A stretch of 54,925 nt of DNA from an uncultured Pseudobdellovibrionaceae bacterium (GTDB lineage Bacteria; Patescibacteriota; Minisyncoccia; Moranbacterales; GCA-2747515), in the NCBI GenBank assembly GCA_964463705.1, contig CAYXCH010000007.1, forward strand, positions 1 through 54,925, in the 5' to 3' direction. This document shows positions 26,966 to 40,307 of this stretch, in pieces. A program made the position numbers and the translations under genes. Below the pieces are notes generated by a model. It worked only from the letters and a program-made list of their open reading frames with translations. It did not search any database and had not been told where the DNA came from. Positions within the stretch are counted from its first letter, which is position 1. Every line of letters begins with the position of its first letter.

Positions 26966-26994
26966 ATTGTATGGCACACCGTGAACAACGTCAA
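26966..26994 (-). promoter_or_regulatory. Sigma70-type promoter for khpA
   Basis: TTGACG-N17-TACAAT on the minus strand. Confidence 0.75.
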
Positions 26995-28169
26995 TACGCC
27001 GGCGTCGGTTTAATAAGCGCATTACCACCAAAAATATTCCATAAATACTTCTTTAATGCAAAAGTCTTGGGGTGCGCCAGATAATCCTCTATACCACGTG
27101 CATGCACATTCCCGGTAATAAGAGATACTTTTTCACCATGATTACCACGCTGCATTGCATCCATTACATCTAAACTATTTTTTAACATTAACACTGTGCG
27201 CCCGTCAGCAACATGTGACAGAAAAAAGCGTTCTGGTATATTAAATTTATAATTTAATGAAACATCTGCAATAGCGCCATACTTGCTGTATAATGATATT
27301 GGAATTGCCAATGCTATACGCGCAAGACGATCTTCATGTTTCTGTGCATATAATGCAAGAAATGTTGACATAGTAAAAGCTGTAATTTCAAGCGCTTTAT
27401 ACGCATCTACACTATGCGCAATATCAACATAAAATGCCTTCTTCCCCTTCTCTTGTGCATAATCTGCAAGCGCATCAAAATATCCTCTTCCATATTCCAA
27501 AAGTGCAACATCGGCTGTACGAATTGCTTGAGAAAGTAAAATGTAATCACGATTATTATAGAAATGTTTCCAATCATGTGCTATGCCAATATTATGTAGT
27601 TGTGCATGATCAATGTCATGAAACTGATTTACAAAACTCCCTTCATTATATTGTGGTATGACATTTGACTCTTCCTCTCTTAGGCATATGAGCATCATAT
27701 TTCTCTCCCTATCCAACTTTTGATTGGGAGCTTTATTTAATAGTTTTGCACCGATTCCGCTCATGCCGAACACTACCGCAGCCACTACTGCATCCTCTTT
27801 ATAGAGAAATGACGGTGGGGCGATAAATCCGCTCTGCGGGGCTACGTCTTCCCTCTCCATCTCTGTAATGTCATGGAGAGAAGTATGTAACTCTTCTTCC
27901 GCGGCATCATAAAGCTCTTGTAAATGTGCATCTTTATGCAATGCATCTGCAACCTCTTCCACCTCAGAACTCTCCACAAGACGGGCAAGTGCCGCGTGTT
28001 GATCGTCCGTATTATCCAACTGTGCAATATCACTCATGGAGTGTCTGATACGTGATAGGGGCGCAGCATACCGCTCCGTCACTACCGACGAACCAAACAC
28101 GGTATCCGGCGACGCCGCCATTGCCGCCGCCCCTGCTGCCGCCGCTTTAAGAAAATCTCTACGATCCAT
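26991..28169 (-). CDS. Orphan with twin-arginine-like N-terminus and TraB/GumN/Tiki-like motifs
   Basis: MDRRDFLKAAAAGAAAMAA; IGIAH..DVALLE, GRTVLM, LITGNVHARGI; TAATG overlap with gltX. Confidence 0.6.
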   Translation of the reverse strand: MDRRDFLKAAAAGAAAMAASPDTVFGSSVVTERYAAPLSRIRHSMSDIAQLDNTDDQHAALARLVESSEVEEVADALHKDAHLQELYDAAEEELHTSLHDITEMEREDVAPQSGFIAPPSFLYKEDAVVAAVVFGMSGIGAKLLNKAPNQKLDRERNMMLICLREEESNVIPQYNEGSFVNQFHDIDHAQLHNIGIAHDWKHFYNNRDYILLSQAIRTADVALLEYGRGYFDALADYAQEKGKKAFYVDIAHSVDAYKALEITAFTMSTFLALYAQKHEDRLARIALAIPISLYSKYGAIADVSLNYKFNIPERFFLSHVADGRTVLMLKNSLDVMDAMQRGNHGEKVSLITGNVHARGIEDYLAHPKTFALKKYLWNIFGGNALIKPTPAY

Positions 28170-29659
28170 TATGCTATTGTATCAATTGCTTGAACTATGC
28201 GCTCCAATGTTTCCTCTTTTCCCAAAACCCATGCACACTCAAACGGACTCGGACTTCGTTTTGCGCCGGTAAGCGCAACACGCACGGGCCATAAAAGATC
28301 TCCGCGCTTCTCTCCCGCCGCCTCCATCAACTCGCGCTCTATCGCTTCCCGTGTCCACTCATCCTCCGGAATCGCACGCAATACCGTTAACGCGTGACTC
28401 AGTGCCGCTCGTGTCTCTTCGTCCGTATTCTTCTTCCATCGCAACATATTTACATCGGAAATCTCCGGACGAGCAAAGAAATATGCCGCTTGTTCAACAC
28501 CAAACTCCGCCAGTGTCTCCAATCGCTCTCGTACAACCGCCGCCACACGGTACAAATATTCAGAATGCGTATACCGCTCATCGGCGACACGAAAGAACTC
28601 TTGGGTTTGCAAGAATGGCAGTGCCGCCTCCACCAACTGTTGTGGATTCATGCGTTTAATATGTTGCATATTAAACCAACGCAGGCGAGAGAGATCACAG
28701 ACCGCCCCCGACGCATTCACATCATGCAATGAAAATCGCTCTTGCAATTCCTCCATGGTAAAAATCTCCTGCGTTTCTCCTTTTCCGGGATTCCATCCCA
28801 ACAACGCCACAAAATTCACCAATGCCTGCGGTAGAAATCCCTTCTCCTTGTAGTCTTCCACCGCCACATCACCCTGCCGCTTGGAAAGCTTGCTCCGGTC
28901 CGGATTGAGTAGCAGAGGAACATGGGCAAACCGCGGAGCGTCCCACCCGAATGCACGATATAACAATATATGCTTTGGAGTGCTGGGTAACCACTCTTCA
29001 CCGCGAATTACATGGGTGATGCGCATTTCATGATCATCCACCACGCTCGCCAAATGATACGTCGGAAACCCATCGGATTTAAGAAGTACTTGATCATCAA
29101 TCGTATCCGTTTCCACGGTAATCCGTCCGCGTACTTCATCATCAATAACAATCGTCTCCCCGCGCGGAACCGCCAGTCGTACAACATATGATGCACCCTC
29201 CCGAACTCGTTTCTCCGCCTCTTCAGAAGCAATTCCGCGACAATGTCCATCATACATCGGAGGTTGCTTGGCCGCTTGCTGTGCCGCTCGCACCGCCTGT
29301 AACCGTTCCGCATCGCAAAAGCAATAATAGGCATCACCGGATTCAATCAGTCGTCTCACTTGCACACGATAACGCTCCAATCGCTGAGATTGTGTGTACG
29401 GCCCATACGCTCCCACCTCGCTCTGCACACCGTCTTGCATCAATACCCCCTCATCCGGAACAATTCCCGCCCATTCCAGTGAGCGCAACATATTGTCCAC
29501 CGCGCCATCCACACTGCGCGATTGATCCGTATCCTCCACTCGCAATACAAACGTCCCACCCCGCGCTTTGGCAAACAAATAATTATACAGTGCCGTTCGT
29601 AATCCTCCGATGTGCAAATACCCCGTCGGCGAAGGCGCAAACCGTGTCCGTACCGTCAT
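28169..29659 (-). CDS. gltX: Glutamate--tRNA ligase
   Basis: RFAPSPTGYLHIGG, LRVEDTD, THVIRGEEW, KLSKR. Confidence 0.98.
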   Translation of the reverse strand: MTVRTRFAPSPTGYLHIGGLRTALYNYLFAKARGGTFVLRVEDTDQSRSVDGAVDNMLRSLEWAGIVPDEGVLMQDGVQSEVGAYGPYTQSQRLERYRVQVRRLIESGDAYYCFCDAERLQAVRAAQQAAKQPPMYDGHCRGIASEEAEKRVREGASYVVRLAVPRGETIVIDDEVRGRITVETDTIDDQVLLKSDGFPTYHLASVVDDHEMRITHVIRGEEWLPSTPKHILLYRAFGWDAPRFAHVPLLLNPDRSKLSKRQGDVAVEDYKEKGFLPQALVNFVALLGWNPGKGETQEIFTMEELQERFSLHDVNASGAVCDLSRLRWFNMQHIKRMNPQQLVEAALPFLQTQEFFRVADERYTHSEYLYRVAAVVRERLETLAEFGVEQAAYFFARPEISDVNMLRWKKNTDEETRAALSHALTVLRAIPEDEWTREAIERELMEAAGEKRGDLLWPVRVALTGAKRSPSPFECAWVLGKEETLERIVQAIDTIA

Positions 29660-29711: not shown

Positions 29712-30320
29712 TCAATTAGTGATGATACGAAGGGCATCGTGATGATTATCACATATCGTTACATGCCGAATATAATAATCCCAGTCCGCTACCGTATTAT
29801 AATGCGCTGTTGCCGTCCGCATCCAATCAAAAAGACCGTCCCAATAGTCATGTTTGATACAAATGACCGGAACTGCCGAAGCAAGATCCGCGGAAAACAG
29901 TGCCAGCACTTCAAAAATTTCATCCATTGTTCCAAATGCTCCGGGGTAGAATACCAGCGCTTGACTATATTGTGCCATTATAATTCGTCGCAATGCCAAA
30001 TCACGCACCGTGATAATATGCGTCAAAATACCATCATCCGACGTCTCCAGATCTGAAAGTGCGGGAACGCGAACTCCAATAGATGATGTACCGGCCGCCA
30101 TAGCACCGGCATTTGCCGCCGACATCACACCGGGACCACCACCGGTTACAATTCCATATCCTCGCTTTCCCAATGCCTCCGCTAACGCATAGGCATCACG
30201 ATATGATGTGGACTGTGGCGTGAACCGATGTGAACCATACACTGTTACAAGCGGAGTCTTCATCTTCCGCAGCGCTCGTAAACCGTCACGATACGTGGAA
30301 AAACATAATTGCTGTGACAT
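29712..30320 (-). CDS. LOG-family nucleotide-monophosphate phosphoribohydrolase (divergent)
   Basis: VTVYGS.R, VTGGGPGVM.AAN.GA, RR, YPGAFGTMDEIFE (PGxxGTxxE). Confidence 0.9.
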   Translation of the reverse strand: MSQQLCFSTYRDGLRALRKMKTPLVTVYGSHRFTPQSTSYRDAYALAEALGKRGYGIVTGGGPGVMSAANAGAMAAGTSSIGVRVPALSDLETSDDGILTHIITVRDLALRRIIMAQYSQALVFYPGAFGTMDEIFEVLALFSADLASAVPVICIKHDYWDGLFDWMRTATAHYNTVADWDYYIRHVTICDNHHDALRIITN

Positions 30321-30345
30321 AGAGATAAATTCTACTTATGGTGAC

Positions 30346-31269
30346 TTAGGATTTCTTTCCATAATTACTGTTAAAGAACGCTTGGAACAACGGACCAACA
30401 CCAACCACGCCGGACTGCGAAAATGTTGGTTCGTATTTCGATATGCGAAAATGCTCATAACGAAAATCATCCAAGGTCATCGGAGCATCCTCCGTCAAAT
30501 GCAATTGCGGCAATGGCGTCTTTGGATTATACAGACGTAACATCTTCCTTGCTAATTTACGATTCTCATCGTAAATATGAGCATCGGCAATATTATAGAA
30601 GAGTGTTCCCACTTGCAACCCCGTAATATGTGCGACAATATGAGTCAGAAGTGCATAAACAACAATGTCATAGGGAGCACCAAAGACGAGGTCCGCCGCC
30701 CGCTGAGTTAGATGACAGTAAAGCGTTCTATCGGCAACCATAAACTGAAAGATATGCGGACAAGGGGGCAATGACATTGTGTCCAATGCCCCCACATTCC
30801 ACGAACTGACCACTAACCGTTTTGAGTACGGATGTTCACGAATTTCATCCACAATTGTTTGCAATTGATCATAAACACGATCACCGCTCTCCCAATGTCG
30901 CCATTGATACATATGTCCAACATATCCATCGTCATCAGCAAAGTTATCCCAAATATGGATATTGTTCTTCAGCAGATAGTCAATCGTGTCGTCTCCACGC
31001 AAAATCCATAGCATCTCGTGTGCCGCAATACGAAAAGAAATTTTGCGTAAGGTGGTAAGAGGAAACTCACGAGAGAGATCAATCGACATTTGTACTCCGA
31101 AAAGCGAGTGTTGTCGTCCGCTGCGTGACGGTTTGAAAATACCCCGCTCTAAGCAACGACGTAATAATGCCGCATACTGTGCGTCATATCGCAACACATT
31201 TTCAGTATTCATTACCATTGTCATATAGTTGATTAATAGAAGCATCTTGCGCTCTATACATCCCGACAC
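30346..31269 (-). CDS. Thymidylate-synthase-fold protein with cytidylate-type active site (putative CMP/dCMP C5-methylase or hydroxymethylase)
   Basis: TS motifs HEMLW, IWD, QWR.W, VSSWN, LPPC, DAHIY; substitutions QRAAD, PYD (Asn177->Asp) and SKR; start may be 31224. Confidence 0.85.
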   Translation of the reverse strand: MSGCIERKMLLLINYMTMVMNTENVLRYDAQYAALLRRCLERGIFKPSRSGRQHSLFGVQMSIDLSREFPLTTLRKISFRIAAHEMLWILRGDDTIDYLLKNNIHIWDNFADDDGYVGHMYQWRHWESGDRVYDQLQTIVDEIREHPYSKRLVVSSWNVGALDTMSLPPCPHIFQFMVADRTLYCHLTQRAADLVFGAPYDIVVYALLTHIVAHITGLQVGTLFYNIADAHIYDENRKLARKMLRLYNPKTPLPQLHLTEDAPMTLDDFRYEHFRISKYEPTFSQSGVVGVGPLFQAFFNSNYGKKS

Positions 31270-32096
31270 GGAGTAAGTTTATACAATACAAACTCTACCT
31301 CACCGCCCTCATCGCCCACACTACGCTTCACTTCGCTCAGTTCCACATTAGCATCAGCACAAATCTCTCGCAGCTCCTTCTCATCACCAAAGTTGCCAAA
31401 TCCGAGATACCCGACACCATCATCAGAGAGATGTTGTGAAAGACCGACAATAAACCGACGAAGGGCACTATATCCGGGATCATACAATCCATATTGCAAT
31501 AAGTCCTTGTGCCGAAAATCCTCCGGCTTTTCAATCCACGGGTGATTCCAATAGATTACGTCATATTTTGTTCCGGGAGAAAGCGCATCATAAACATCAC
31601 TCTCTAATGCCATACACTGGGAACCACATTGCAATAACTCAATGTTATGACGACAGTTCCGTACAGCAGCATCAGATATATCTGTAAGTGTGACAGGGGC
31701 AACGCGTCCGGTTTTATATAAGGACAGACCTGTAATTCCGGAACCCGCACCAATCTCCAATAATGACGGAGTCACTCCGTTATGACGCTTCTTATAGTCA
31801 TCCAATTCCTCAAAGAGTGTCGGCGTAAACAATTCATGTCCATGAAAAATTTCCGGTGAAAATACATCGGGAAGCACATCAATTGTTTTCTCTGTGCCGT
31901 GAAGTGGAACAGAATGCCTTCCACGGTCACGATTCTCATCCAGAATCTCTTCGGAAATATCCGCCTGAGCCAAAACCCACTGTTGGTGTGTATCTGCCAC
32001 TTCATCACAATGGCCGGATTCACCATTGTCGCCTGTCGTCGCCGTCACAGGTGCATGTGAAGCATATGGTGTAGGAATATTTTTATCGTTCATCAT
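31254..32096 (-). CDS. Class I SAM-dependent methyltransferase
   Basis: LEIGAGSGI, TDIS, SDVY, DVIYWNHPW, YDPGY. Confidence 0.9.
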   Translation of the reverse strand: MMNDKNIPTPYASHAPVTATTGDNGESGHCDEVADTHQQWVLAQADISEEILDENRDRGRHSVPLHGTEKTIDVLPDVFSPEIFHGHELFTPTLFEELDDYKKRHNGVTPSLLEIGAGSGITGLSLYKTGRVAPVTLTDISDAAVRNCRHNIELLQCGSQCMALESDVYDALSPGTKYDVIYWNHPWIEKPEDFRHKDLLQYGLYDPGYSALRRFIVGLSQHLSDDGVGYLGFGNFGDEKELREICADANVELSEVKRSVGDEGGEVEFVLYKLTPCRDV

Positions 32097-32282
32097 ATTA
32101 ACGCTTATTAATTATCACAAACCTCCTATACATTCAGCGAACCATTTTTGTAAAAACATAACAAATATTTATATATGTCAACTACAAATATTTCCTTCTG
32201 TTAAGCCAAAAATAGAACTATCCCTCTCTTATTCATAAATGTTGTACACCAGGCACTTCTTGGTTTATACTGAAATATATAA

Positions 32283-33050
32283 ATGAATCTTTCCATTATG
32301 AATACCCAACATCTTCTCCTAAAACTTCAGCATCTCGGCATGACCGAACGTGAAGCGATTATTTATCTCTCTCTTTTAAAACTGGGACAAGCAACAGCAT
32401 ATAAAGTCGGAAAAATTGCCGGTATGCGTGTTTCTTCCACATATGTTATTTTGGAAAAACTTCATGCGGATGGATTTGTCTTAAAAACACCGGGAACAAA
32501 AAAAATAACATTCTCTGCAAGAAAGCCACAGGAACTCCTCTCTGATTTCCGCGCTAAAGTAAATGAATTTGAGGATATCATTCCGCTACTTCAACGTGAA
32601 GCGCAGAATAATCCCATATCGGATACACTTATCTTTAGTGGATATGATGGAATTGCAGAGGCGCTGAATTATCGCTATGATACTACTTGCCGCACATCTA
32701 CCGCCTGCCTTTATTCAAGTATTCCAAGCAATGATCCCAAGCTGCTTTCTCTCTATACGACATGGGATCGCAAAGCTATTACGGATGGGGCGATATTTAC
32801 AATCATCCTTCCAAAGACTCGCGATATTGTAAAATTCACAGAAATTGTTCCGGAAAAATATGAAAATTCTCGCTACATTGATCCAAAATACTACTTTATT
32901 GAAAGTGCGATTGAAATTATCGGTACCGCGTTCGTTCGGATTATTTCCCATGAAAAAAAGACCGCCACTATTATTGACGATGTCCACACGGCACAAACAA
33001 TGCGTCAAATTTTTACACTAATTTATGATAATATTTCACAACCTTGGTAA
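32283..33050 (+). CDS. TrmB-family transcriptional regulator
   Basis: LQHLGMTEREAIIYLSLLKLG..TA..VG..AGM..SSTY..LEKL wHTH; FSARKPQELL; C-terminal effector-type domain. Confidence 0.9.
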   Translation: MNLSIMNTQHLLLKLQHLGMTEREAIIYLSLLKLGQATAYKVGKIAGMRVSSTYVILEKLHADGFVLKTPGTKKITFSARKPQELLSDFRAKVNEFEDIIPLLQREAQNNPISDTLIFSGYDGIAEALNYRYDTTCRTSTACLYSSIPSNDPKLLSLYTTWDRKAITDGAIFTIILPKTRDIVKFTEIVPEKYENSRYIDPKYYFIESAIEIIGTAFVRIISHEKKTATIIDDVHTAQTMRQIFTLIYDNISQPW

Positions 33051-33824
33051 CTATTGTCGCCATAATAGGCGATAAATGCTTTGTAACACTCTATTGTAAA
33101 TTATAATTACCGGAAATACTACCACACTCCGTAGCATTTTGCCCAGGCGGTGAGGCTGGTGGATGGTGCGGTATATCCACTCCACGCCCCACCGACGCAT
33201 CCACCGCGGAGCACGAGGAACGGCACCGGTAAGAAAATCCACGGCACCGCCAACGCCCACCGCAACACCGGTTGCGCCCTGTGCTCGCAACGCCTCCAAA
33301 AAATACTCCTGTTGCGGTGCGCCGAAATTTGCAATATATATCGCCGGTGCCTTGTGAATGGAGGATGAAGAGTATGCCTCTATTCCTTCACACCGAACAT
33401 CTTCACCCGTTACCTGCAATTGCGGGTACCGCTCTCGCACTACCCGTTGAACCGTATGCCATTGTGACAATCCGTCCGCACGACAAAAAAAGTGTACCGA
33501 CCATCCTTCTTTCTCCGCTGCGTCCAATATATCAAAGAAAAGATCCGCGCCGGCATAGCGTTGCACGGGACGATGCATTAGCCGTGCCATTAACGCTACC
33601 CCCACCCCGTCGGCAATACACATATCCGCTTGTTTTAGTACGGCACGAAATTTCTCATTACTCCGCGCCAAAAGCAAAAATTCCGGATTGACCGTCGCAA
33701 TACGCAAAAATTCTCCTGTTTCTCGCATTGCCTCATCAATACGACATCTCGCCACATCCGGTGAGCACAAATCCGGCTGATAAAATACCGATGATAATTT
33801 TCCGAAACACCGACTCATATGCAA
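33051..33824 (-). CDS. WecG/TagA/CpsF-family glycosyltransferase (GT26)
   Basis: TVNPEF, ADGVG, GADL, FGAPQQE, GVGGAVDF, RAPRWM..GVEWIYR. Confidence 0.93.
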   Translation of the reverse strand: MHMSRCFGKLSSVFYQPDLCSPDVARCRIDEAMRETGEFLRIATVNPEFLLLARSNEKFRAVLKQADMCIADGVGVALMARLMHRPVQRYAGADLFFDILDAAEKEGWSVHFFCRADGLSQWHTVQRVVRERYPQLQVTGEDVRCEGIEAYSSSSIHKAPAIYIANFGAPQQEYFLEALRAQGATGVAVGVGGAVDFLTGAVPRAPRWMRRWGVEWIYRTIHQPHRLGKMLRSVVVFPVIIIYNRVLQSIYRLLWRQ

Positions 33825-35027
33825 TTATGATGATGCTCTATGATCTGCATCAACACTGCACGTCTCCATCACAGAATGTACCGTATGTTTCCATGCAAAT
33901 CGTTTACTCTGCGCAATTGCCCGTGAACGCAACGCCTCCCGCACCGCTTTATCGCAAACGACACGACGCAGCGCCTGATAAAGAGACGTCACATCGGACG
34001 GATCACAATACTCCACCGCGTCTCCACCAACTTCGGGAATGGAGGAAACGGTTCCCGCCACCACCGGTGTCCCAACACTGAGCGCTTCCAGCACCGGTAA
34101 GCCAAATCCTTCATATAGTGATGGATATACAAACACCATTGCTCCGGCATATAACGCCGGAAGATGTTCTTGCGGTACAAATCCTACCACTCGCACATGA
34201 TCCGATAAATCCATTTCTTGCACCAATCGCTCCACGTCGGTAATCAATGGAGCAAGATGCGGCATCAATGCACCGGAAATAACCAGTGGCGGCACCACGC
34301 ACGGTTTCTCTGTCCGTAACCGTGCATACGCACGCAACAGCGTTGTCACATTTTTGCGCACATCCAATCCTCCACCAAAATACAGATAATCGCCGTCTTG
34401 CACACCGTACAAATCCAAAATACGATGACGCTCCTCCGATGATGGTGGCGAGGATTTAAACATTGGATCACAATCAATATGCTGTACGGTAATCCGTGTA
34501 GACGGTACACCCAACAGACGCACGACATCATCCCGCGTATGATTGGAAATGGCGATCAGTGCATCTGCACGAACAATGGCACGCTCCGTCAAATACTGGT
34601 AGAATCGCTTGCGTACATTATTGAGATACTGTGGAAATATATGCGGCACAAGATCATGCACAACCATAACATGGTGCACGCCCTGTATGATGGTCGGACA
34701 CTGGTACAACGATAAGAACACATCACAGCCGTCCGCTCGCACCCGACGCGGCAATAATACACGCTCCCATAAAATTTTCCGTACCAAGTCATCTCGCGTA
34801 TACAACGGAGGAAGGAACGCTCGCACCGTACAGCGTTCCCGCACCGATGACGGCAGCGATTGCACCATGGCACGGATAGACTCTTCCTCCGCATAAAATA
34901 CAATCTGTATATCACCATACTTCCCCCGCTGCATGTCCTCCAAGAGTGTGCGCACAAAATGATACGTCACTTCCCCGATACCACTCCCTCGCTTCCGCAG
35001 AAACGATACATTAATACCAATCTTCAT
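33825..35027 (-). CDS. GT4 glycosyltransferase
   Basis: VHDLVP, IAISNHT, RKNV, PSLYEGFGLPVLEALSVGTPV. Confidence 0.93.
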   Translation of the reverse strand: MKIGINVSFLRKRGSGIGEVTYHFVRTLLEDMQRGKYGDIQIVFYAEEESIRAMVQSLPSSVRERCTVRAFLPPLYTRDDLVRKILWERVLLPRRVRADGCDVFLSLYQCPTIIQGVHHVMVVHDLVPHIFPQYLNNVRKRFYQYLTERAIVRADALIAISNHTRDDVVRLLGVPSTRITVQHIDCDPMFKSSPPSSEERHRILDLYGVQDGDYLYFGGGLDVRKNVTTLLRAYARLRTEKPCVVPPLVISGALMPHLAPLITDVERLVQEMDLSDHVRVVGFVPQEHLPALYAGAMVFVYPSLYEGFGLPVLEALSVGTPVVAGTVSSIPEVGGDAVEYCDPSDVTSLYQALRRVVCDKAVREALRSRAIAQSKRFAWKHTVHSVMETCSVDADHRASS

Positions 35028-35092
35028 AAAACACTCCTTCTTGTTACCCTTCTTTCATCCTACCATACCTACGTAGTGTGAAACCGCCGACA

Positions 35093-35314
35093 CTACCGAA
35101 CCTCATCTTCTCCATCAAGTAAAGCATATATTCCGCTCCGTTCATTGACACGAGCGTTCCGCACAAGATCATCCCGCCTAAGAAGTTGTGCATACTTTTG
35201 ATGTGAAGGTTTTTCTGACGCACCGATTACTTTTTCCGCGACAATAACAGACACTTTTGCGGGATCATTTTTTATACTATTATCAACGTTTATTTCGCTT
35301 TTTTTATGTATCAT
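35093..35314 (-). CDS. Possible 73-aa small protein
   Basis: Open frame MIHKKSEINVD...EDEVR in a 335-bp intergenic gap; no recognisable motif. Confidence 0.25.
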   Translation of the reverse strand: MIHKKSEINVDNSIKNDPAKVSVIVAEKVIGASEKPSHQKYAQLLRRDDLVRNARVNERSGIYALLDGEDEVR

Positions 35315-35362
35315 GTATAATGCATAAAAGTGCAATAATAAAAATCCTATAAATGTTTTGGT

Positions 35363-36676
35363 ATGACACAGGAGACACGTCACATCACAAAGGATAAAAC
35401 AATCGTAGTCGTTGGACTGGGATATGTCGGGCTGCCATTGGCGTTGCTGGCACGAGAAGCCGGCTATGATGTTATCGGGCTTGATGTGCGAAAAGAATGG
35501 GTGGATATGATCAACCAAGGAACCTGTCCTATCAATGATGATGAGAAGGTTACAGACAAATTTGAGCGCTTCCGCTTCCCCGCAACGATAGATCCTGCGG
35601 AAATCGCCAAAGGAGATATCATCTTGATTGCCGTACCAACACCGGTTGATGAGAATCAAAACCCCGTTTATGACTATGTCGTCGATGCATCAACAACCGT
35701 TGCGGAAAACATGAAAGCGGGAGCACTTGTTGTCCTGGAATCCACCGTCAATCCCGGTACCTGTGAAACCATCGTTCGTCCGATTTTTGAGCGTGCCGGA
35801 TTTACCATCGGAACAGACGTGGACATCGCCCACTGTCCGGAACGAATTGATCCCGGAAAGTCATCATTTAGCGCCGGGTATCATATTGGAAATACGGCAC
35901 GGGTGGTCGGTGCGTTTACTCCGGACGGAACAACGCGAGCGGCGGAATTTTATCGATCTATCATTGATGCGGAAATTCGGGAAATGAAGTCCATTCGCGA
36001 GGCGGAGGCGGTGAAAATTTTGGAAAACTCATTCCGAGATATCAATATTGCATTTATCAATGAAATTGCACAGAGCTTTGACCATCTCGGGATTGACGTA
36101 TTGGATGTTATTGAGGGCGCAAAAACAAAGCCGTATGCATTTATGGCACACTACCCCAGTTGCGGCGTTGGCGGTCACTGCATTCCCGTTGATCCGTATT
36201 ACTTGATTGAAAGCGCACAACGCAGCGGGTTTGATCACCAGTTTATGCGACAAGCGCGCAAGGTCAATAACTTTATGCCGGAGTATTCCGTAGAACGCAT
36301 GCAGGATGCTCTCAATGACATTAAACGCCCGATGAACGGTGAGACAATCGGACTCCTGGGACTGGCATATAAAGCCAATGTTGATGATATGCGTGAATCT
36401 CCTTCGTTCAAAATCATTAAACACCTACGCAAGCACGGAGCAAATGTCATCACCTATGACCCACACATTCTTCACAAATCGGACAGACAGACACTGGAAG
36501 ATGTACTGAACGATGTTGATCACGTCTTCATCGCCACAAACCACGATGAATTTGTGGATATGGATCTCTCATTACTAAAAAAGCACGATATCAAGATTGT
36601 ATTGGATGGAAAGAATTGTATGGATAAAGACGCCATTGAGGCCATGGGCATCATTTATCGCGGAATTGGTCGGTAG
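35363..36676 (+). CDS. UDP-N-acetylhexosamine 6-dehydrogenase (WecC/TviB family)
   Basis: VVGLGYVGLP, LESTVNPG, PERIDPG, KILENSFRDINIA, GVGGHCIPVDP, AYKANVDDMRESP. Confidence 0.92.
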   Translation: MTQETRHITKDKTIVVVGLGYVGLPLALLAREAGYDVIGLDVRKEWVDMINQGTCPINDDEKVTDKFERFRFPATIDPAEIAKGDIILIAVPTPVDENQNPVYDYVVDASTTVAENMKAGALVVLESTVNPGTCETIVRPIFERAGFTIGTDVDIAHCPERIDPGKSSFSAGYHIGNTARVVGAFTPDGTTRAAEFYRSIIDAEIREMKSIREAEAVKILENSFRDINIAFINEIAQSFDHLGIDVLDVIEGAKTKPYAFMAHYPSCGVGGHCIPVDPYYLIESAQRSGFDHQFMRQARKVNNFMPEYSVERMQDALNDIKRPMNGETIGLLGLAYKANVDDMRESPSFKIIKHLRKHGANVITYDPHILHKSDRQTLEDVLNDVDHVFIATNHDEFVDMDLSLLKKHDIKIVLDGKNCMDKDAIEAMGIIYRGIGR

Positions 36677-36689
36677 AAAAACCATCATT

Positions 36690-36722
36690 AAAAAGACTGC
36701 TCATACTGTGCAGTCTTTTTTT
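36690..36722 (+). terminator. Intrinsic terminator
   Basis: aaaagactgc-N9-gcagtc followed by a T-run. Confidence 0.8.
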
Positions 36723-36778
36723 GCCTAATTCCGTTTTTCCATTTAAAATAGAACTATAATTCTTTTGGATGATTCTTT

Positions 36779-37705
36779 ATGAAGCTGATTGTAAACATGC
36801 CGGGATACAATGAGGAGAAGCACATCGCAGAGACAATTCGGCGTGTACCGCGAACGATTGATGGAATTGATGAAGTATTGGTACAGGTAATTGACGATGG
36901 GTCGGTAGACCGCACCGTAGAAGAAGCACGAGCAGGCGGTGCGGATATTATTATTTCTCATGATGGTAATCGTGGACTCGGTGTAATGTTTCGCACGATG
37001 CGACAAAGCGCATTGGAACACGGAGCGGACATTATGGTAAATATTGATGCGGACGGACAGTTTGATCCACAGGATATTAAAAAACTTATCCGTCCAATTT
37101 TAGAGAAAACGGCAGATATTGTCATTGCGGACCGCTTCTCCAAGAGTACGGCAAAGAATATCCCCTTCCTCAAAGATAAGCTGAATCGTCTGGGTGCATG
37201 GCTTGTCGCCAAAGCCACCGGTGTTCCGGTTGTAGATCTTACCTGTGGATTTCGAGCACATAGCCGAGAGGCGATGTTGCGATTGAGTGATCCGGCGGGA
37301 TTTACCTATACACAAGAAACAATCATTGACGCGATCGGTAAAAATCTCAAACTTCAATGGGTTCCGGTTGTTGTACACTATCATGCTCAACGCAAGAGCC
37401 GTGTTGTCAAGACAATTTGGAATTATGTCAATAACAGTGCGCGAATTATCATTCGTGCGTTTCGCGATATCCAACCAATGAAGTTTTTTGCCATTCCGGG
37501 TATTTTGTTTATGATCGCATCCGCTGTGGGATTTTTCATTCTTCGTGGCGCCTATCCACTGACAACGGTGGCTTTCTTTCTCGTTGGTATGCAGTTCTTA
37601 ACATTCGGATTGATCGCCGATATGATGCGAGGAACACGAATGCAAAATGAGGAAGTTCTCTATCGCCTGCGCCGTAACGAATGGCGTGAAAATCACAAAC
37701 ACTAA
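36779..37705 (+). CDS. GT2 glycosyltransferase (DPM1-like, polyprenol-phosphate glycosyltransferase type)
   Basis: PGYNEE, IDDGSVD, DADGQ, DLTCGFRA, two C-terminal TMs. Confidence 0.88.
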   Translation: MKLIVNMPGYNEEKHIAETIRRVPRTIDGIDEVLVQVIDDGSVDRTVEEARAGGADIIISHDGNRGLGVMFRTMRQSALEHGADIMVNIDADGQFDPQDIKKLIRPILEKTADIVIADRFSKSTAKNIPFLKDKLNRLGAWLVAKATGVPVVDLTCGFRAHSREAMLRLSDPAGFTYTQETIIDAIGKNLKLQWVPVVVHYHAQRKSRVVKTIWNYVNNSARIIIRAFRDIQPMKFFAIPGILFMIASAVGFFILRGAYPLTTVAFFLVGMQFLTFGLIADMMRGTRMQNEEVLYRLRRNEWRENHKH

Positions 37706-37709
37706 CCCT

Positions 37710-38813
37710 ATGCCTACATCTGATACTCCGCGCATTCTCTTTCTCTCTCGCGCCTACCCGCCGGTTACCGGTGGTATTGAGAATCAAAATTATGAAATCT
37801 CCCGCGCTCTCGCCCGGCGTGTTCCATGCACGGTTATCGCAAACAAGCATGGAAAACGCGCGCTCCCTCTCTTTCTTCCCTATGCGTTAATCGTAACTCT
37901 GTGGAACATGCGTACGCATGATGTGTTATTGCTGGGCGATGGCGTATTGGGAATTATCGGCGGGTTTGTAAAAATCTTCTACGGCAACCGCAAGAAAGTC
38001 TTATGTATTGTTCACGGACTTGATTTGACATTCAACAACAATATCTATCAAAATTTCTGGGTCAAACAATTTATTCCCGATGCCGATCGCCTTATTGCCG
38101 TCGGTAATCAAACAATTAAAGAAGGTGTGACTCGCGGAATTCCGGAAGAAAAATTTGTTTTTGTTCCCAATGGTGTTGATGTGAAAAAATTTGCCCTCGG
38201 AACACCGGATCGCAAAGCACTGTCTGTACTACTGAAAAAAGATCTTAGCGATGATACTCGTGTTCTTTTTACCGGCGGACGGTTGGTAAAACGCAAGGGT
38301 GTGGCATGGTTTATCCGGACCATTCTACCCACTCTACCGGACAATATTATTTATGCTGTTGCCGGAGACGGCCCCGATCGCACAAATATTGAGGCGGCGA
38401 TTCGGGAAAATGGTATGCAAGACCGTGTTGTGCTATTAGGATATGTCAGTGATGACGATCGCCGGACACTCCTCCACAGTTGCGACCTCTTTATTCAGCC
38501 AAATATTCCGGTAGAGGGTGATATGGAAGGATTCGGGTTGGTGGTGCTGGAAGCCGGTAGCAGCGGCATTGTTGTCGTAGCTTCACGATTGGAAGGATTG
38601 AAGGATGCGATTCATGATGGTAAAAACGGAATTCTTGTTCCTCCGGAAGATGCTGATGCGTGGAAGGAAACCGTTATAACACTTCTGAGTGATGACGATA
38701 AACGGACGGCGATGGGACGTGCGGCACACGAATATATTACAAAACACTTTACATGGGACGCCATCGCCGCTCGCTATGTAGAAGTGATTGAACAAACACC
38801 GGCACGACGGTAA
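37710..38813 (+). CDS. GT4 glycosyltransferase
   Basis: YPPVTGGIE, GRLVKRKG, EGFGLVVLEA; start moved to MPTSDTPRILF. Confidence 0.92.
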   Translation: MPTSDTPRILFLSRAYPPVTGGIENQNYEISRALARRVPCTVIANKHGKRALPLFLPYALIVTLWNMRTHDVLLLGDGVLGIIGGFVKIFYGNRKKVLCIVHGLDLTFNNNIYQNFWVKQFIPDADRLIAVGNQTIKEGVTRGIPEEKFVFVPNGVDVKKFALGTPDRKALSVLLKKDLSDDTRVLFTGGRLVKRKGVAWFIRTILPTLPDNIIYAVAGDGPDRTNIEAAIRENGMQDRVVLLGYVSDDDRRTLLHSCDLFIQPNIPVEGDMEGFGLVVLEAGSSGIVVVASRLEGLKDAIHDGKNGILVPPEDADAWKETVITLLSDDDKRTAMGRAAHEYITKHFTWDAIAARYVEVIEQTPARR

Positions 38814-38841
38814 AAACCTTTATTACAACACATTTTTCGTA

Positions 38842-38871
38842 TTGACGCACGTTGTGCTTTAGCGGTACAAT
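38842..38871 (+). promoter_or_regulatory. Sigma70-type promoter
   Basis: TTGACG-N18-TACAAT. Confidence 0.7.
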
Positions 38872-38885
38872 ACACTATGGCGCTT

Positions 38886-38996
38886 TGTGAAAAGTGCCAT
38901 CCCGTTGGTGCTTCGGCACCATCTATGAATGGGCCCGTTCGTTCACAGTAAAAGAGATAAAGACCTCATCGATGTATGTGGATTTCCATGTACATC
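38886..38996 (+). ncRNA. Candidate structured 5' leader RNA
   Basis: TGTGAA/TTCACA closing stem, GGTGC-TTCG-GCACC tetraloop hairpin, GAATGGG/CCCGTTC and an 11-bp hairpin at 38971-38996. Confidence 0.4.
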
Positions 38997-39011
38997 ATGA
39001 GTCATGAAGCT

Positions 39012-39734
39012 ATGACCGAAGAATATCGCGACGATATTGAGGAGATGGAAGAGGATGATGATCGTACCTTCGGCGAGTGGCTGCAAGACAATTTGCGCGT
39101 GATTATCAGCGTGATTATTGTGTTGCTGCTGGCGCTGGGCATCTACTCCTACTCCAAGCGTTCGCAGGAGGCGCGCATGGTTGCCGACACCTCCGGCGCA
39201 AACACCGCTACGGAAACATCTGCACAAGATGATGGTGGCGTGATGGCGCAAATTGGTGATGCCGTAACGGGTGGAGCAAAGAAAGCGGCGGATACCGCTG
39301 CTGCTGCCGCCGGTGCGGCTAAAGATGCGGCAACAGGTGCTGTAGAAACTGCGAAGAACAGCATGAAGAAGGATGATGCACCGCAAGTTATGGCACAAGA
39401 TGACGCACGCAACACAACGGCTGCACGCGACACCTTAACGGGTGATGCATACACCTTGGTGGCGCGAGCCGGGGATGGTAAAACACATCTGGCGCGACGC
39501 GCACTATCCGGATATCTGGCACAACACCCGGTAGACGGATTGACCGCAGCACATAAGGTCTACATTGAAGACTACCTGCAAAAGGCAGTTGGAGGACCGA
39601 CGATGCTACGGATTGGACAAGAGGTACGCTTCTCAACGGACTTGATTAAACAAGCCATTGAGCGAGCGCAACGCCTCAATGACATGCAGCTGCGCAACTT
39701 GCAGAAGTATGCGGCCGCCGCTTCTCTCTCCTAG
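39012..39734 (+). CDS. Membrane-anchored hypothetical protein
   Basis: Acidic N-terminus, one TM, Ala/Thr-rich linker, C-terminal globular domain; flanked by a promoter and a terminator. Confidence 0.85.
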   Translation: MTEEYRDDIEEMEEDDDRTFGEWLQDNLRVIISVIIVLLLALGIYSYSKRSQEARMVADTSGANTATETSAQDDGGVMAQIGDAVTGGAKKAADTAAAAAGAAKDAATGAVETAKNSMKKDDAPQVMAQDDARNTTAARDTLTGDAYTLVARAGDGKTHLARRALSGYLAQHPVDGLTAAHKVYIEDYLQKAVGGPTMLRIGQEVRFSTDLIKQAIERAQRLNDMQLRNLQKYAAAASLS

Positions 39735-39786
39735 ACGTCTGTGACGAACACTTACAGGGAAAACGCAACAGCTTCATGTCCTTTAC

Positions 39787-39816
39787 AAAAAACACCGCCA
39801 GCGTGCGGTGTTTTTT
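39787..39816. terminator. Bidirectional intrinsic terminator
   Basis: aaaaaacaccgc-cagcgt-gcggtgtttttt. Confidence 0.9.
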
Positions 39817-39818
39817 AT

Positions 39819-40307
39819 TTATGGACGATTGGCGGGAACAACACTAATGCGTGTACCGAGTGTTGCACCGTACGAGCGTATTGCGCCGTGCGGCAATTCA
39901 AGAACATACCGTGCCGGCAACCGTGGTCGCAAGATTGTGGAATCAAACGGAACTCCACTGCGAATATCTACAATTTCCCACCGTGCGTTAATCCATACGA
40001 TATCCAATGGAATAGATGTTTTATTCATCCAAAACGCATGACGGGCGCTGGACGGAAATACGAATAACATTCCGCATTGTTTACATAGTTGTGAATGATG
40101 TTGTAGTCCGCGACGACGGGTTTCCTCTCTTGCCGCCACTGTCGCTACAACAACGGCATCGTTAATACTTATACGCACCGTATCGCCATCGGCATACTCC
40201 TCAATACCATCTATATCATCTATCGCCCCCGGCAGCGGACTTAACAGACCGATACAGAGTACTACCGTGAAGAAGATTTTACCGTAGGTTGTGTATGTTC
40301 CACCCAT
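39819..40307 (-). CDS. DUF192-family protein
   Basis: RRRGL, GMLFVF, FWMNKTSIPLDIVWI, YVLELP. Confidence 0.92.
   Translation of the reverse strand: MGGTYTTYGKIFFTVVLCIGLLSPLPGAIDDIDGIEEYADGDTVRISINDAVVVATVAAREETRRRGLQHHSQLCKQCGMLFVFPSSARHAFWMNKTSIPLDIVWINARWEIVDIRSGVPFDSTILRPRLPARYVLELPHGAIRSYGATLGTRISVVPANRP

Follow-up and report, generated by a model that had tools for sequence, protein, structure and literature searches.

The 54,925-nucleotide contig CAYXCH010000007.1 (GenBank assembly GCA_964463705.1), referred to below as the window at its full length, raises the question of what is made by a cassette at positions 29712-33050, in which genes for a LOG protein, a thymidylate synthase (TS) homologue and an S-adenosylmethionine (SAM)-dependent methyltransferase (MTase) lie divergent from a gene for a TrmB-type regulator. 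A first-pass annotation had suggested a modified-cytosine pathway related in logic to those of bacimethrin and mildiomycin. We consider it probable that the cassette encodes a three-enzyme pathway under TrmB, which would convert cytidine 5'-monophosphate (CMP) to 5-methyl-CMP, then to 5-methylcytosine and finally to an N-methylated base. Judging from gene content, the cassette is the TS/LOG version of a modular family that occurs in bacteria of the Candidate Phyla Radiation (CPR), DPANN archaea and some Proteobacteria, with the MTase constant and the C5-methylase and glycosidase exchangeable. The annotated layout, three minus-strand genes divergent from TrmB and lying between gltX and a glycosyltransferase gene, was verified for all four open reading frames (ORFs), at their original coordinates and with their families:

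29712-30320, minus strand: LOG gene, 202 aa (PF03641, PF18306, TIGR00730)
30346-31269, minus strand: TS-fold gene, ORF extending to a GTG (PF00303)
31254-32096, minus strand: class-I SAM methyltransferase gene, MTS/HemK-like (PF05175)
32097-32282, unstranded: divergent intergenic control region between the MTase operon and trmB, 28% GC
32283-33050, plus strand: TrmB-type helix-turn-helix regulator gene, 255 aa (PF01978)

Substrate residues of the thymidylate synthase homologue

The TS homologue matched PF00303 (E 1.8e-76) and shared 47% identity with genuine bacterial ThyA; the PDB entries that it matched best were all thymidylate synthases. It scored 235 bits against TIGR03284 (cut-off 108) and stayed under the cut-offs of four ThyA equivalog models (NF002497, NF002499, NF002496 and NF002495). 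The gene caller placed its start at an ATG at 31245 (299 aa), the ORF extends to the GTG at 31269, and homologues begin near 31209. The clade to which it belongs is ThyA-derived and very rare, with about 11 clusters among 5.8 billion proteins, and its members are separated from ThyA by their family-profile scores (at least 413 bits versus at most 332 bits). When 1.84 billion representatives at 50% identity were scanned exhaustively with HMMER, the only matches were two strong clusters, the outlier P0354 and a fragment. In the GTDB species representatives a single TS-family member was found, without partner genes.

Residues were numbered as in E. coli ThyA and compared in a family alignment of seven members, with five ThyA sequences as controls. 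Lys126, Ala167 and Asp177 were present in all seven members, compared to Arg, Ser and Asn in the five controls, and the motifs 'QRA(A/G)D' and 'SKR' were likewise common to all seven. We confirmed the previously claimed N177D exchange in the window copy, which reads 'GAPYDIVVY' versus 'GLPFNIASY'. In MilA, Asp186 (TS Asn177) specifies cytosine, and Ala176 and Lys133' (TS Ser167 and Arg126') confer the preference for CMP over dCMP in MilA and BcmA (PMC5175136). The equivalent substrate-determinant motifs are 'DSKR' in MilA and 'DTKR', 'MRAND' and 'GIISDVF' in BcmA, so that the window enzyme carries the Lys/Ala/Asp determinants known from both, as expected from its annotation as a CMP-type TS homologue. 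Orthology to MilA/BcmA was nevertheless rejected: identity to BcmA was just 26% over 177 aa, and neither MilA nor T4 dCMP hydroxymethylase (dCH) was among the top 60 PDB matches. Because of this low identity to BcmA, the lineage of the window enzyme is read as having gained the three CMP determinants (R126K, S167A and N177D) independently.

The catalytic residues point to retained ThyA chemistry. Cys146, Glu58, Tyr94, Asp169, His207, Tyr209 and Arg21/127/166 were kept in all seven aligned members, and the fold, Leu143 and the phosphate-binding arginines are those of ThyA. Reductive methylation with 5,10-methylene-tetrahydrofolate (THF) is likely. The enzyme differs from ThyA not only in the three substrate residues and its linkage or fusion to LOG but also in further changes common to the seven members (H147P, W83F, F176Y and a two-residue deletion after Tyr94) and in a conserved C-terminal extension 'VGPLFxxFF' of 10-25 residues past the ThyA end (residue 264), which reads 'VGPLFQAFF' in the window. 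In L. casei TS, the exchange equivalent to N177D (N229D) turns the enzyme into a dCMP methylase; unlike this mutant, the window enzyme is predicted to use the ribonucleotide CMP. Two outliers, P0354 and P0367, keep Asp177 and have Ser167 (P0367 also has Thr126), and may be intermediates between ThyA and the CMP-type enzyme. A third protein, P0121, has His at the Arg127 position.

Linkage, fusions and sister modules

The first-pass annotation had named beforehand, as a test, the co-occurrence of the four genes in other genomes. Such co-occurrence was found: the cassette genes adjoin one another in about ten dereplicated contexts, with shuffled gene order, an arrangement far beyond chance:

Window and L099/L007/L121: TrmB, then MTase, TS and LOG
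L009: TrmB, then MTase and TS (contig ends)
L001-3, L004/5, L008 and L113: MTase, then a TS-LOG fusion
L006 and L012: TrmB, then TS and a LOG-MTase fusion (either order)
L016: LOG, TS and a convergent MTase

Fusions of LOG with the TS homologue were seen in P0003/4/5 and L113, and in at least four lineages overall; fusions of LOG with the MTase were seen in L006, L012 and L109. The differing fusions and the shuffled order over about ten contexts provide Rosetta-stone evidence for a functional unit, and the fusion of the glycosidase to each of the other two enzymes fits its being the middle step.

Alternatively, the TS homologue might supply the cell with thymidylate, or might methylate dCMP for DNA precursors or DNA modification, and LOG and MTase would be unrelated housekeeping genes. 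This is very unlikely, even though the enzyme is 47% identical to ThyA, exceeds the TIGR03284 cut-off (235 versus 108 bits) and has a housekeeping neighbourhood, and even though a TS variant (L010/L017) stands alone beside a thymidylate-kinase-like gene and the L. casei mutant N229D methylates dCMP. The N177D, S167A and R126K exchanges common to the core members point to cytosine and ribose, the scores are below four ThyA equivalog cut-offs, the linkage is kept despite the shuffled gene order, and at least four lineages have the enzyme fused to a LOG protein, by which its nucleotide product would be destroyed. On the same grounds (signature residues, gene fusions and conservation of the linkage), an ordinary ThyA with chance neighbours was rejected. 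The L010/L017 variant may represent a different use of the modified nucleotide; its neighbours (L010 5983-9275, L017 6105-9397) are a 567-aa radical-SAM protein, a thymidylate-kinase-family gene, two GNAT acetyltransferases and an M20 peptidase.

The LOG protein matched PF03641 (E 3e-21), PF18306 (E 6e-18) and TIGR00730 (105.6 bits, cut-off 96.35), with scores under the equivalog cut-offs for cytokinin LOG and PpnN. Its best PDB relatives were TT1465 (1WEK, E 8e-35) and type-II LOG phosphoribohydrolases, with which its intact motifs GGGPGVM and PGAFGTMDE (the GGGxGxM and PGGxGTxxE-type motifs of LOG/PpnN nucleosidases) and an Arg-Arg pair align. The bases freed by known LOGs are cytokinins or purines, while PpnN acts on nucleoside monophosphates in general; the window-type LOG, unlike these, is tied through its fusions to a predicted C5-modified CMP. 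It is predicted to be a type-II LOG-like nucleoside 5'-monophosphate N-glycosidase releasing a modified cytosine base and ribose 5-phosphate.

The same MTase family (311-357 bits) is paired in L100, L103, L104, L115, L123 and L124 with a SAM-dependent cytosine-C5 methylase of the RsmB/F (NOL1/NOP2/Sun) type that keeps both catalytic Cys motifs. In DPANN archaea (L103, L104, L123 and L124) this enzyme is fused to a LOG domain, whereas on a 1.05-Mb CPR contig with an orthologous TrmB (L100) it is fused to a BcmB-like domain. The locus L115 encodes a 792-aa triple fusion of MTase, glycosidase and RsmB/F, and MTase-glycosidase fusions were found in L120 and L129. The best profile match of the BcmB-like domain in L100, L115, L120 and L129 was the C. 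botulinum CMP N-glycosidase BcmB (4JEN, E 5e-5), and its remaining matches were all DNPH1/Rcl; tblastn found no BcmB homologue in the window, where LOG stands in its place, or in the module loci. LOG had initially been assigned the role of MilB/BcmB, and the sister modules, which carry a BcmB-like CMP N-glycosidase domain in its place, bear this out. Both the C5-modifying enzyme and the glycosidase thus appear to have been replaced by non-homologous analogues around a constant MTase, and the common intermediate would most simply be a 5-methylcytosine nucleotide because RsmB/F enzymes can only methylate.

In three separate lineages of the proteobacterial versions, an ABC importer lies directly upstream of the MTase-glycosidase(-RsmB/F) gene (L115 553-3166, L120 882-3341 and L129 385-2826), suggesting that the metabolite is also taken up. 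It consists of an ATPase, a permease and an NMT1/THI5-like binding protein of the family that includes ThiY. In L129, a transposase gene follows the MTase-glycosidase gene.

The C5 group, the methyltransferase and the product

The early steps of bacimethrin (BcmA/BcmB/BcmC, Clostridium botulinum) and mildiomycin (MilA/MilB) biosynthesis follow a comparable logic, C5 modification of CMP and then N-glycosidic cleavage, with a SAM methyltransferase acting next in the case of bacimethrin; the C. botulinum cluster was itself recovered in our searches (L132). The first-pass annotation accordingly favoured hydroxymethylation. Work on the ternary complex of T4 dCH defines a hydroxymethylase signature: a water-activating Asp/Glu at Cys-3, three positions ahead of the catalytic Cys; Ser/Thr at Tyr-2, two positions ahead of the catalytic Tyr; and absence of a C-terminal tail (PMC6400193); at Cys-3, T4 dCH has D145 and MilA reads 'IDVAC', compared to Leu143 in TS (PMC6400193). 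BcmA agrees with it at both residues, with Asp at Cys-3 ('IDVSC') and Thr at Tyr-2 ('GTAY'). The window enzyme has Leu at Cys-3 ('SLPPC'), reads 'GHMY', retains the TS-like Asp169 and possesses a C-terminal tail, and the signature is absent from it. Its clade has Leu at Cys-3 (Val in L010) and Met/Ile before Tyr, without Ser/Thr at Tyr-2.

The neighbourhood of some relatives also bears on this step. A dihydrofolate reductase (DHFR) gene begins 3 nt after the TS-LOG gene in L113 and 9 nt after it in L008, encoding a canonical FolA (PF00186, E 3e-55) in the former and a DHFR/RibD_C protein in the latter. An adjoining DHFR is the expected partner of a methylase producing dihydrofolate, not of a hydroxymethylase producing THF, and points to methylation. 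As a general partner of the module DHFR was rejected, being present only in L008 and L113. The C5 group added is most likely methyl rather than hydroxymethyl, because a SAM-dependent C5-methylase of the RsmB/F type takes the place of the TS homologue in the sister modules.

If the TS homologue were instead a CMP hydroxymethylase like MilA/BcmA, LOG would free 5-hydroxymethylcytosine and the MTase would make a bacimethrin-like thiamine antimetabolite. The Lys/Ala/Asp determinants shared with MilA and BcmA are compatible with such a route, as are the altered folate-closure elements (W83F, H147P and the C-terminal extension), since changes of this kind in TS mutants can admit water, and the ThiY-family binding proteins at L115, L120 and L129 hint at ligands resembling the thiamine pyrimidine. 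We nonetheless judge it unlikely: the residue at Cys-3, the residue at Tyr-2 and the tail all depart from the hydroxymethylases, DHFR adjoins in L008 and L113, and the SAM-dependent C5-methylases that replace TS are incapable of hydroxymethylation. No match to a ThiD-type kinase (BcmD) or to thiaminase I was found by tblastn at E <= 1e-3 in the window or in any module locus. The MTase, for its part, is not BcmC-like, as described next. Overall, none of the cassette enzymes is orthologous to BcmA, BcmB or BcmC: the TS homologue is a ThyA derivative (47% identity to ThyA, 26% to BcmA) without Asp at Cys-3, the glycosidase is a LOG of the SLOG fold and not of the nucleoside 2-deoxyribosyltransferase fold, and the MTase is of the MTS type and not of the UbiE/Methyltransf_25 type.

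The MTase matched PF05175, with weak matches to HemK and RsmC and no equivalog cut-off reached. The window copy has motif I 'LEIGAGSG' and motif IV 'NHPW' (N-x-P-F/W; NPPF in L006), and a roughly 55-aa N-terminal extension relative to its homologues; N-x-P-(F/W) and 'VFSP' were invariant in the family alignment. In a PDB profile search its top solved relative was the uncharacterised MJ0882, and the named enzymes among its closest solved relatives were all N-methyltransferases (GenN, HemK, RsmC, RlmG, METTL5, PRMTs and ToxA). Alignment of the MTase to BcmC with hhalign covered just 75 SAM-binding columns, and BcmC, a Methyltransf_25/UbiE-type enzyme, lacks the N-x-P-F/W motif. The proposed identity as a BcmC-like O-methyltransferase was rejected, as only the SAM-fold core is common to the two, and a bacimethrin-type 2-O-methyl product is not indicated, because the MTase resembles N-methyltransferases instead. 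As every named closest solved relative is an N-methyltransferase, our best guess is that the MTase N-methylates a cytosine-type base, which is the least secure step of the pathway. With RsmC/RlmG/HemK/GenN-type (MTS, PF05175) enzymes it shares the SAM fold, a 'GVFS'-like N-terminal motif and the N-x-P-F/W motif IV. It differs from them in its linkage to a base pathway, including fusions with LOG or BcmB-like domains, and in its presumed substrate, a free pyrimidine base and not rRNA or protein.

The MTase family, with more than 120 clusters, is far larger than the TS family. Of 19 informative loci, about 15 have the MTase gene beside, or fused with, one for a glycosidase or C5-methylase. A Methanosarcinales metagenome-assembled genome (MAG; L106 5188-7714) has a TrmB-like regulator gene divergent from a 332-aa radical-SAM gene, which is followed by a gene of this MTase family; no glycosidase or C5-methylase was recognised there. 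Radical-SAM enzymes recur beside the modules (L106, L017 and L100). On Acidobacteriota-type contigs (L102 5676-8968, L116, L117 and L119), distant MTase relatives scoring 230-245 bits lie between an EryCIII-like glycosyltransferase and a Rieske oxygenase, a natural-product-like context.

Put together, the pathway would run as follows. The TS homologue would bind CMP, with Asp177 reading cytosine and Ala167 and Lys126' fitting the ribose, as its sequence signatures suggest, and would transfer and reduce the one-carbon unit of 5,10-methylene-THF to give 5-methyl-CMP and dihydrofolate. LOG, on the basis of its family and fusions, would hydrolyse the N-glycosidic bond to release 5-methylcytosine and ribose 5-phosphate. 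The MTS-type MTase would then add a second methyl group, most likely to nitrogen, either the exocyclic N4 or a ring nitrogen freed by deglycosylation. The last two steps could occur in either order, and the methylated atom is put forward as a proposal; the base might serve as a signal or an antimetabolite, or might be a metabolite that the cell needs. More tentatively, members of CPR, DPANN and a few Proteobacteria may share a pathway to a doubly methylated cytosine, such as N4,5-dimethylcytosine or another N- or O-methyl-5-methylcytosine, which could act as a signal, an antimetabolite or a metabolite exchanged between symbiont and host. In the searchable literature we found neither the module nor a CMP C5-methylase described, in line with the earlier suggestion of an undescribed, dedicated cytosine-nucleotide pathway.

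Several observations weigh against this pathway. Both the position that receives the second methyl group and what the product is for are guesswork. The Lys/Ala part of the signature is relaxed in the outliers P0354 (K/S/D) and P0367 (T/S/D), and the TS variant of L010/L017 (Saccharibacteria MAG GCA_964403365.1) has no LOG or MTase gene within 6 kb. Strong MTase-family members in L101, L105 and L118 lack recognisable partners, and L106 has only the radical-SAM enzyme and TrmB. RsmB/F enzymes normally act on RNA, and we infer that their step is equivalent to that of the TS homologue. DHFR adjoins in only two of about 11 contexts, and its presence could be an inherited thyA-folA arrangement. Finally, hydroxymethylation could still take place, because W83F, H147P, F176Y, the deletion after Tyr94 and the longer C-terminus alter the folate-closure region.

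If the proposal is correct, three substitutions would have shifted a TS active site from dUMP to CMP, an event independent of the one in MilA/BcmA. Folate-dependent methylation of CMP at C5 would be seen for the first time in the ThyA-derived enzyme, one of two new activities; the other would be a LOG devoted to a modified pyrimidine nucleotide. No NSUN-type methylase before the RsmB/F-like enzymes would have had a mononucleotide as its substrate, and free methylated 5-methylcytosine bases would form a new class of natural metabolites. The modular pathway would then be common to both major radiations of ultra-small prokaryotes that depend on hosts, groups about whose specialised metabolism hardly anything is known.

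The TrmB regulator and the surroundings of the cassette

The regulator is a winged-helix protein of the TrmB family (PF01978, E 7.6e-13). TrmB is present in five of about ten contexts; orthologous genes lie divergently beside the module in L006, L007/L099/L121, L009 and L012, and in the RsmF-type locus L100. TrmB is presumed to be a cassette-specific regulator. An imperfect palindrome, AAATATTTATA-N9-TACAAATATTT, lies at 32163-32193 in the divergent intergenic region and may be due to chance in AT-rich DNA. Promoter-like matches in this region were not above the shuffled expectation, and the divergent intergenic regions of the other loci contained only unrelated AT-rich palindromes, with no TrmB operator in common. 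In L100 (2761-12150), a TrmB-type regulator heads each of three divergent units in a row, accompanied by a 526-aa radical-SAM protein in one unit, by the glycosidase-RsmB/F fusion and MTase in another, and by a Methyltransf_12-like and an HMGL-like protein in the third; this region looks like a TrmB-controlled specialised-metabolism island.

The genes around the cassette are housekeeping genes, encoding MraZ, GreA, ribosomal proteins L10 and S16, a UMP-kinase-like protein (AA_kinase) and cell-envelope enzymes. The cassette is flanked as follows:

28169-29659: gltX (TIGR00464, 524 bits)
33051-33824: WecG/TagA glycosyltransferase (family match)

The best relatives of GltX were from Moraniibacteriota, Peregrinibacteria and other or unclassified Patescibacteria (50-52% identity), consistent with the CPR-like genome recognised at the outset. 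The G+C content of the cassette (0.426) was the minimum of 258 sliding 3.3-kb segments (55-kb mean 0.493, standard deviation 0.021), with 0.387 for trmB and 0.28 for the intergenic region. Since it is the lowest in the window, this value is compatible with lateral acquisition of the cassette.

Low G+C suggesting lateral transfer, together with the occurrence of LOG/SLOG and nucleotide-cleaving enzymes in defence systems, could also fit an anti-phage or conflict system that, on induction, depletes or poisons the CMP pool by methylation and subsequent cleavage, and defence had been among the roles first suggested. A search of PADLOC-DB 2.0 gave no specific match to a defence system: LOG matched PsyrA (21.8 bits) and the MTase matched mad2 (42 bits), both weak, generic matches at the fold level, and the TS homologue and TrmB had none. 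Sensors, effectors or toxin-antitoxin-like partners are missing, the neighbours are housekeeping genes in all contexts, the coupling of sister modules to an ABC importer fits metabolism, and a third, methylating step would be needless for depletion. A defence role is thus extremely unlikely, and we retain the methylated-base pathway as the preferred explanation.

No ThyX, DHFR or dCMP deaminase was found among ten small window ORFs checked, which include those for MraZ, GreA, L10, S16 and the UMP-kinase-like protein, and an Rfam scan of the whole 55 kb gave no tRNA, rRNA or other family. Directly downstream of gltX, at 26991-28169 on the minus strand, lies a gene whose 392-aa product matched no family apart from its twin-arginine (TAT) signal. 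GC skew was positive only at 35000-40000, coinciding with a plus-strand block that encodes glycosyltransferases and a nucleotide-sugar dehydrogenase, in a window whose genes otherwise lie on the minus strand. In L012 (7785-9155), a pair resembling a diversity-generating retroelement (RVT_1 reverse transcriptase and bAvd) is located about 3.6 kb downstream of the module. In L016 (540-866), LOG-TS is closely preceded on its upstream side by a gene for a 108-aa PF01035 protein (MGMT-type DNA_binding_1) and by a 205-aa ORF without annotation.

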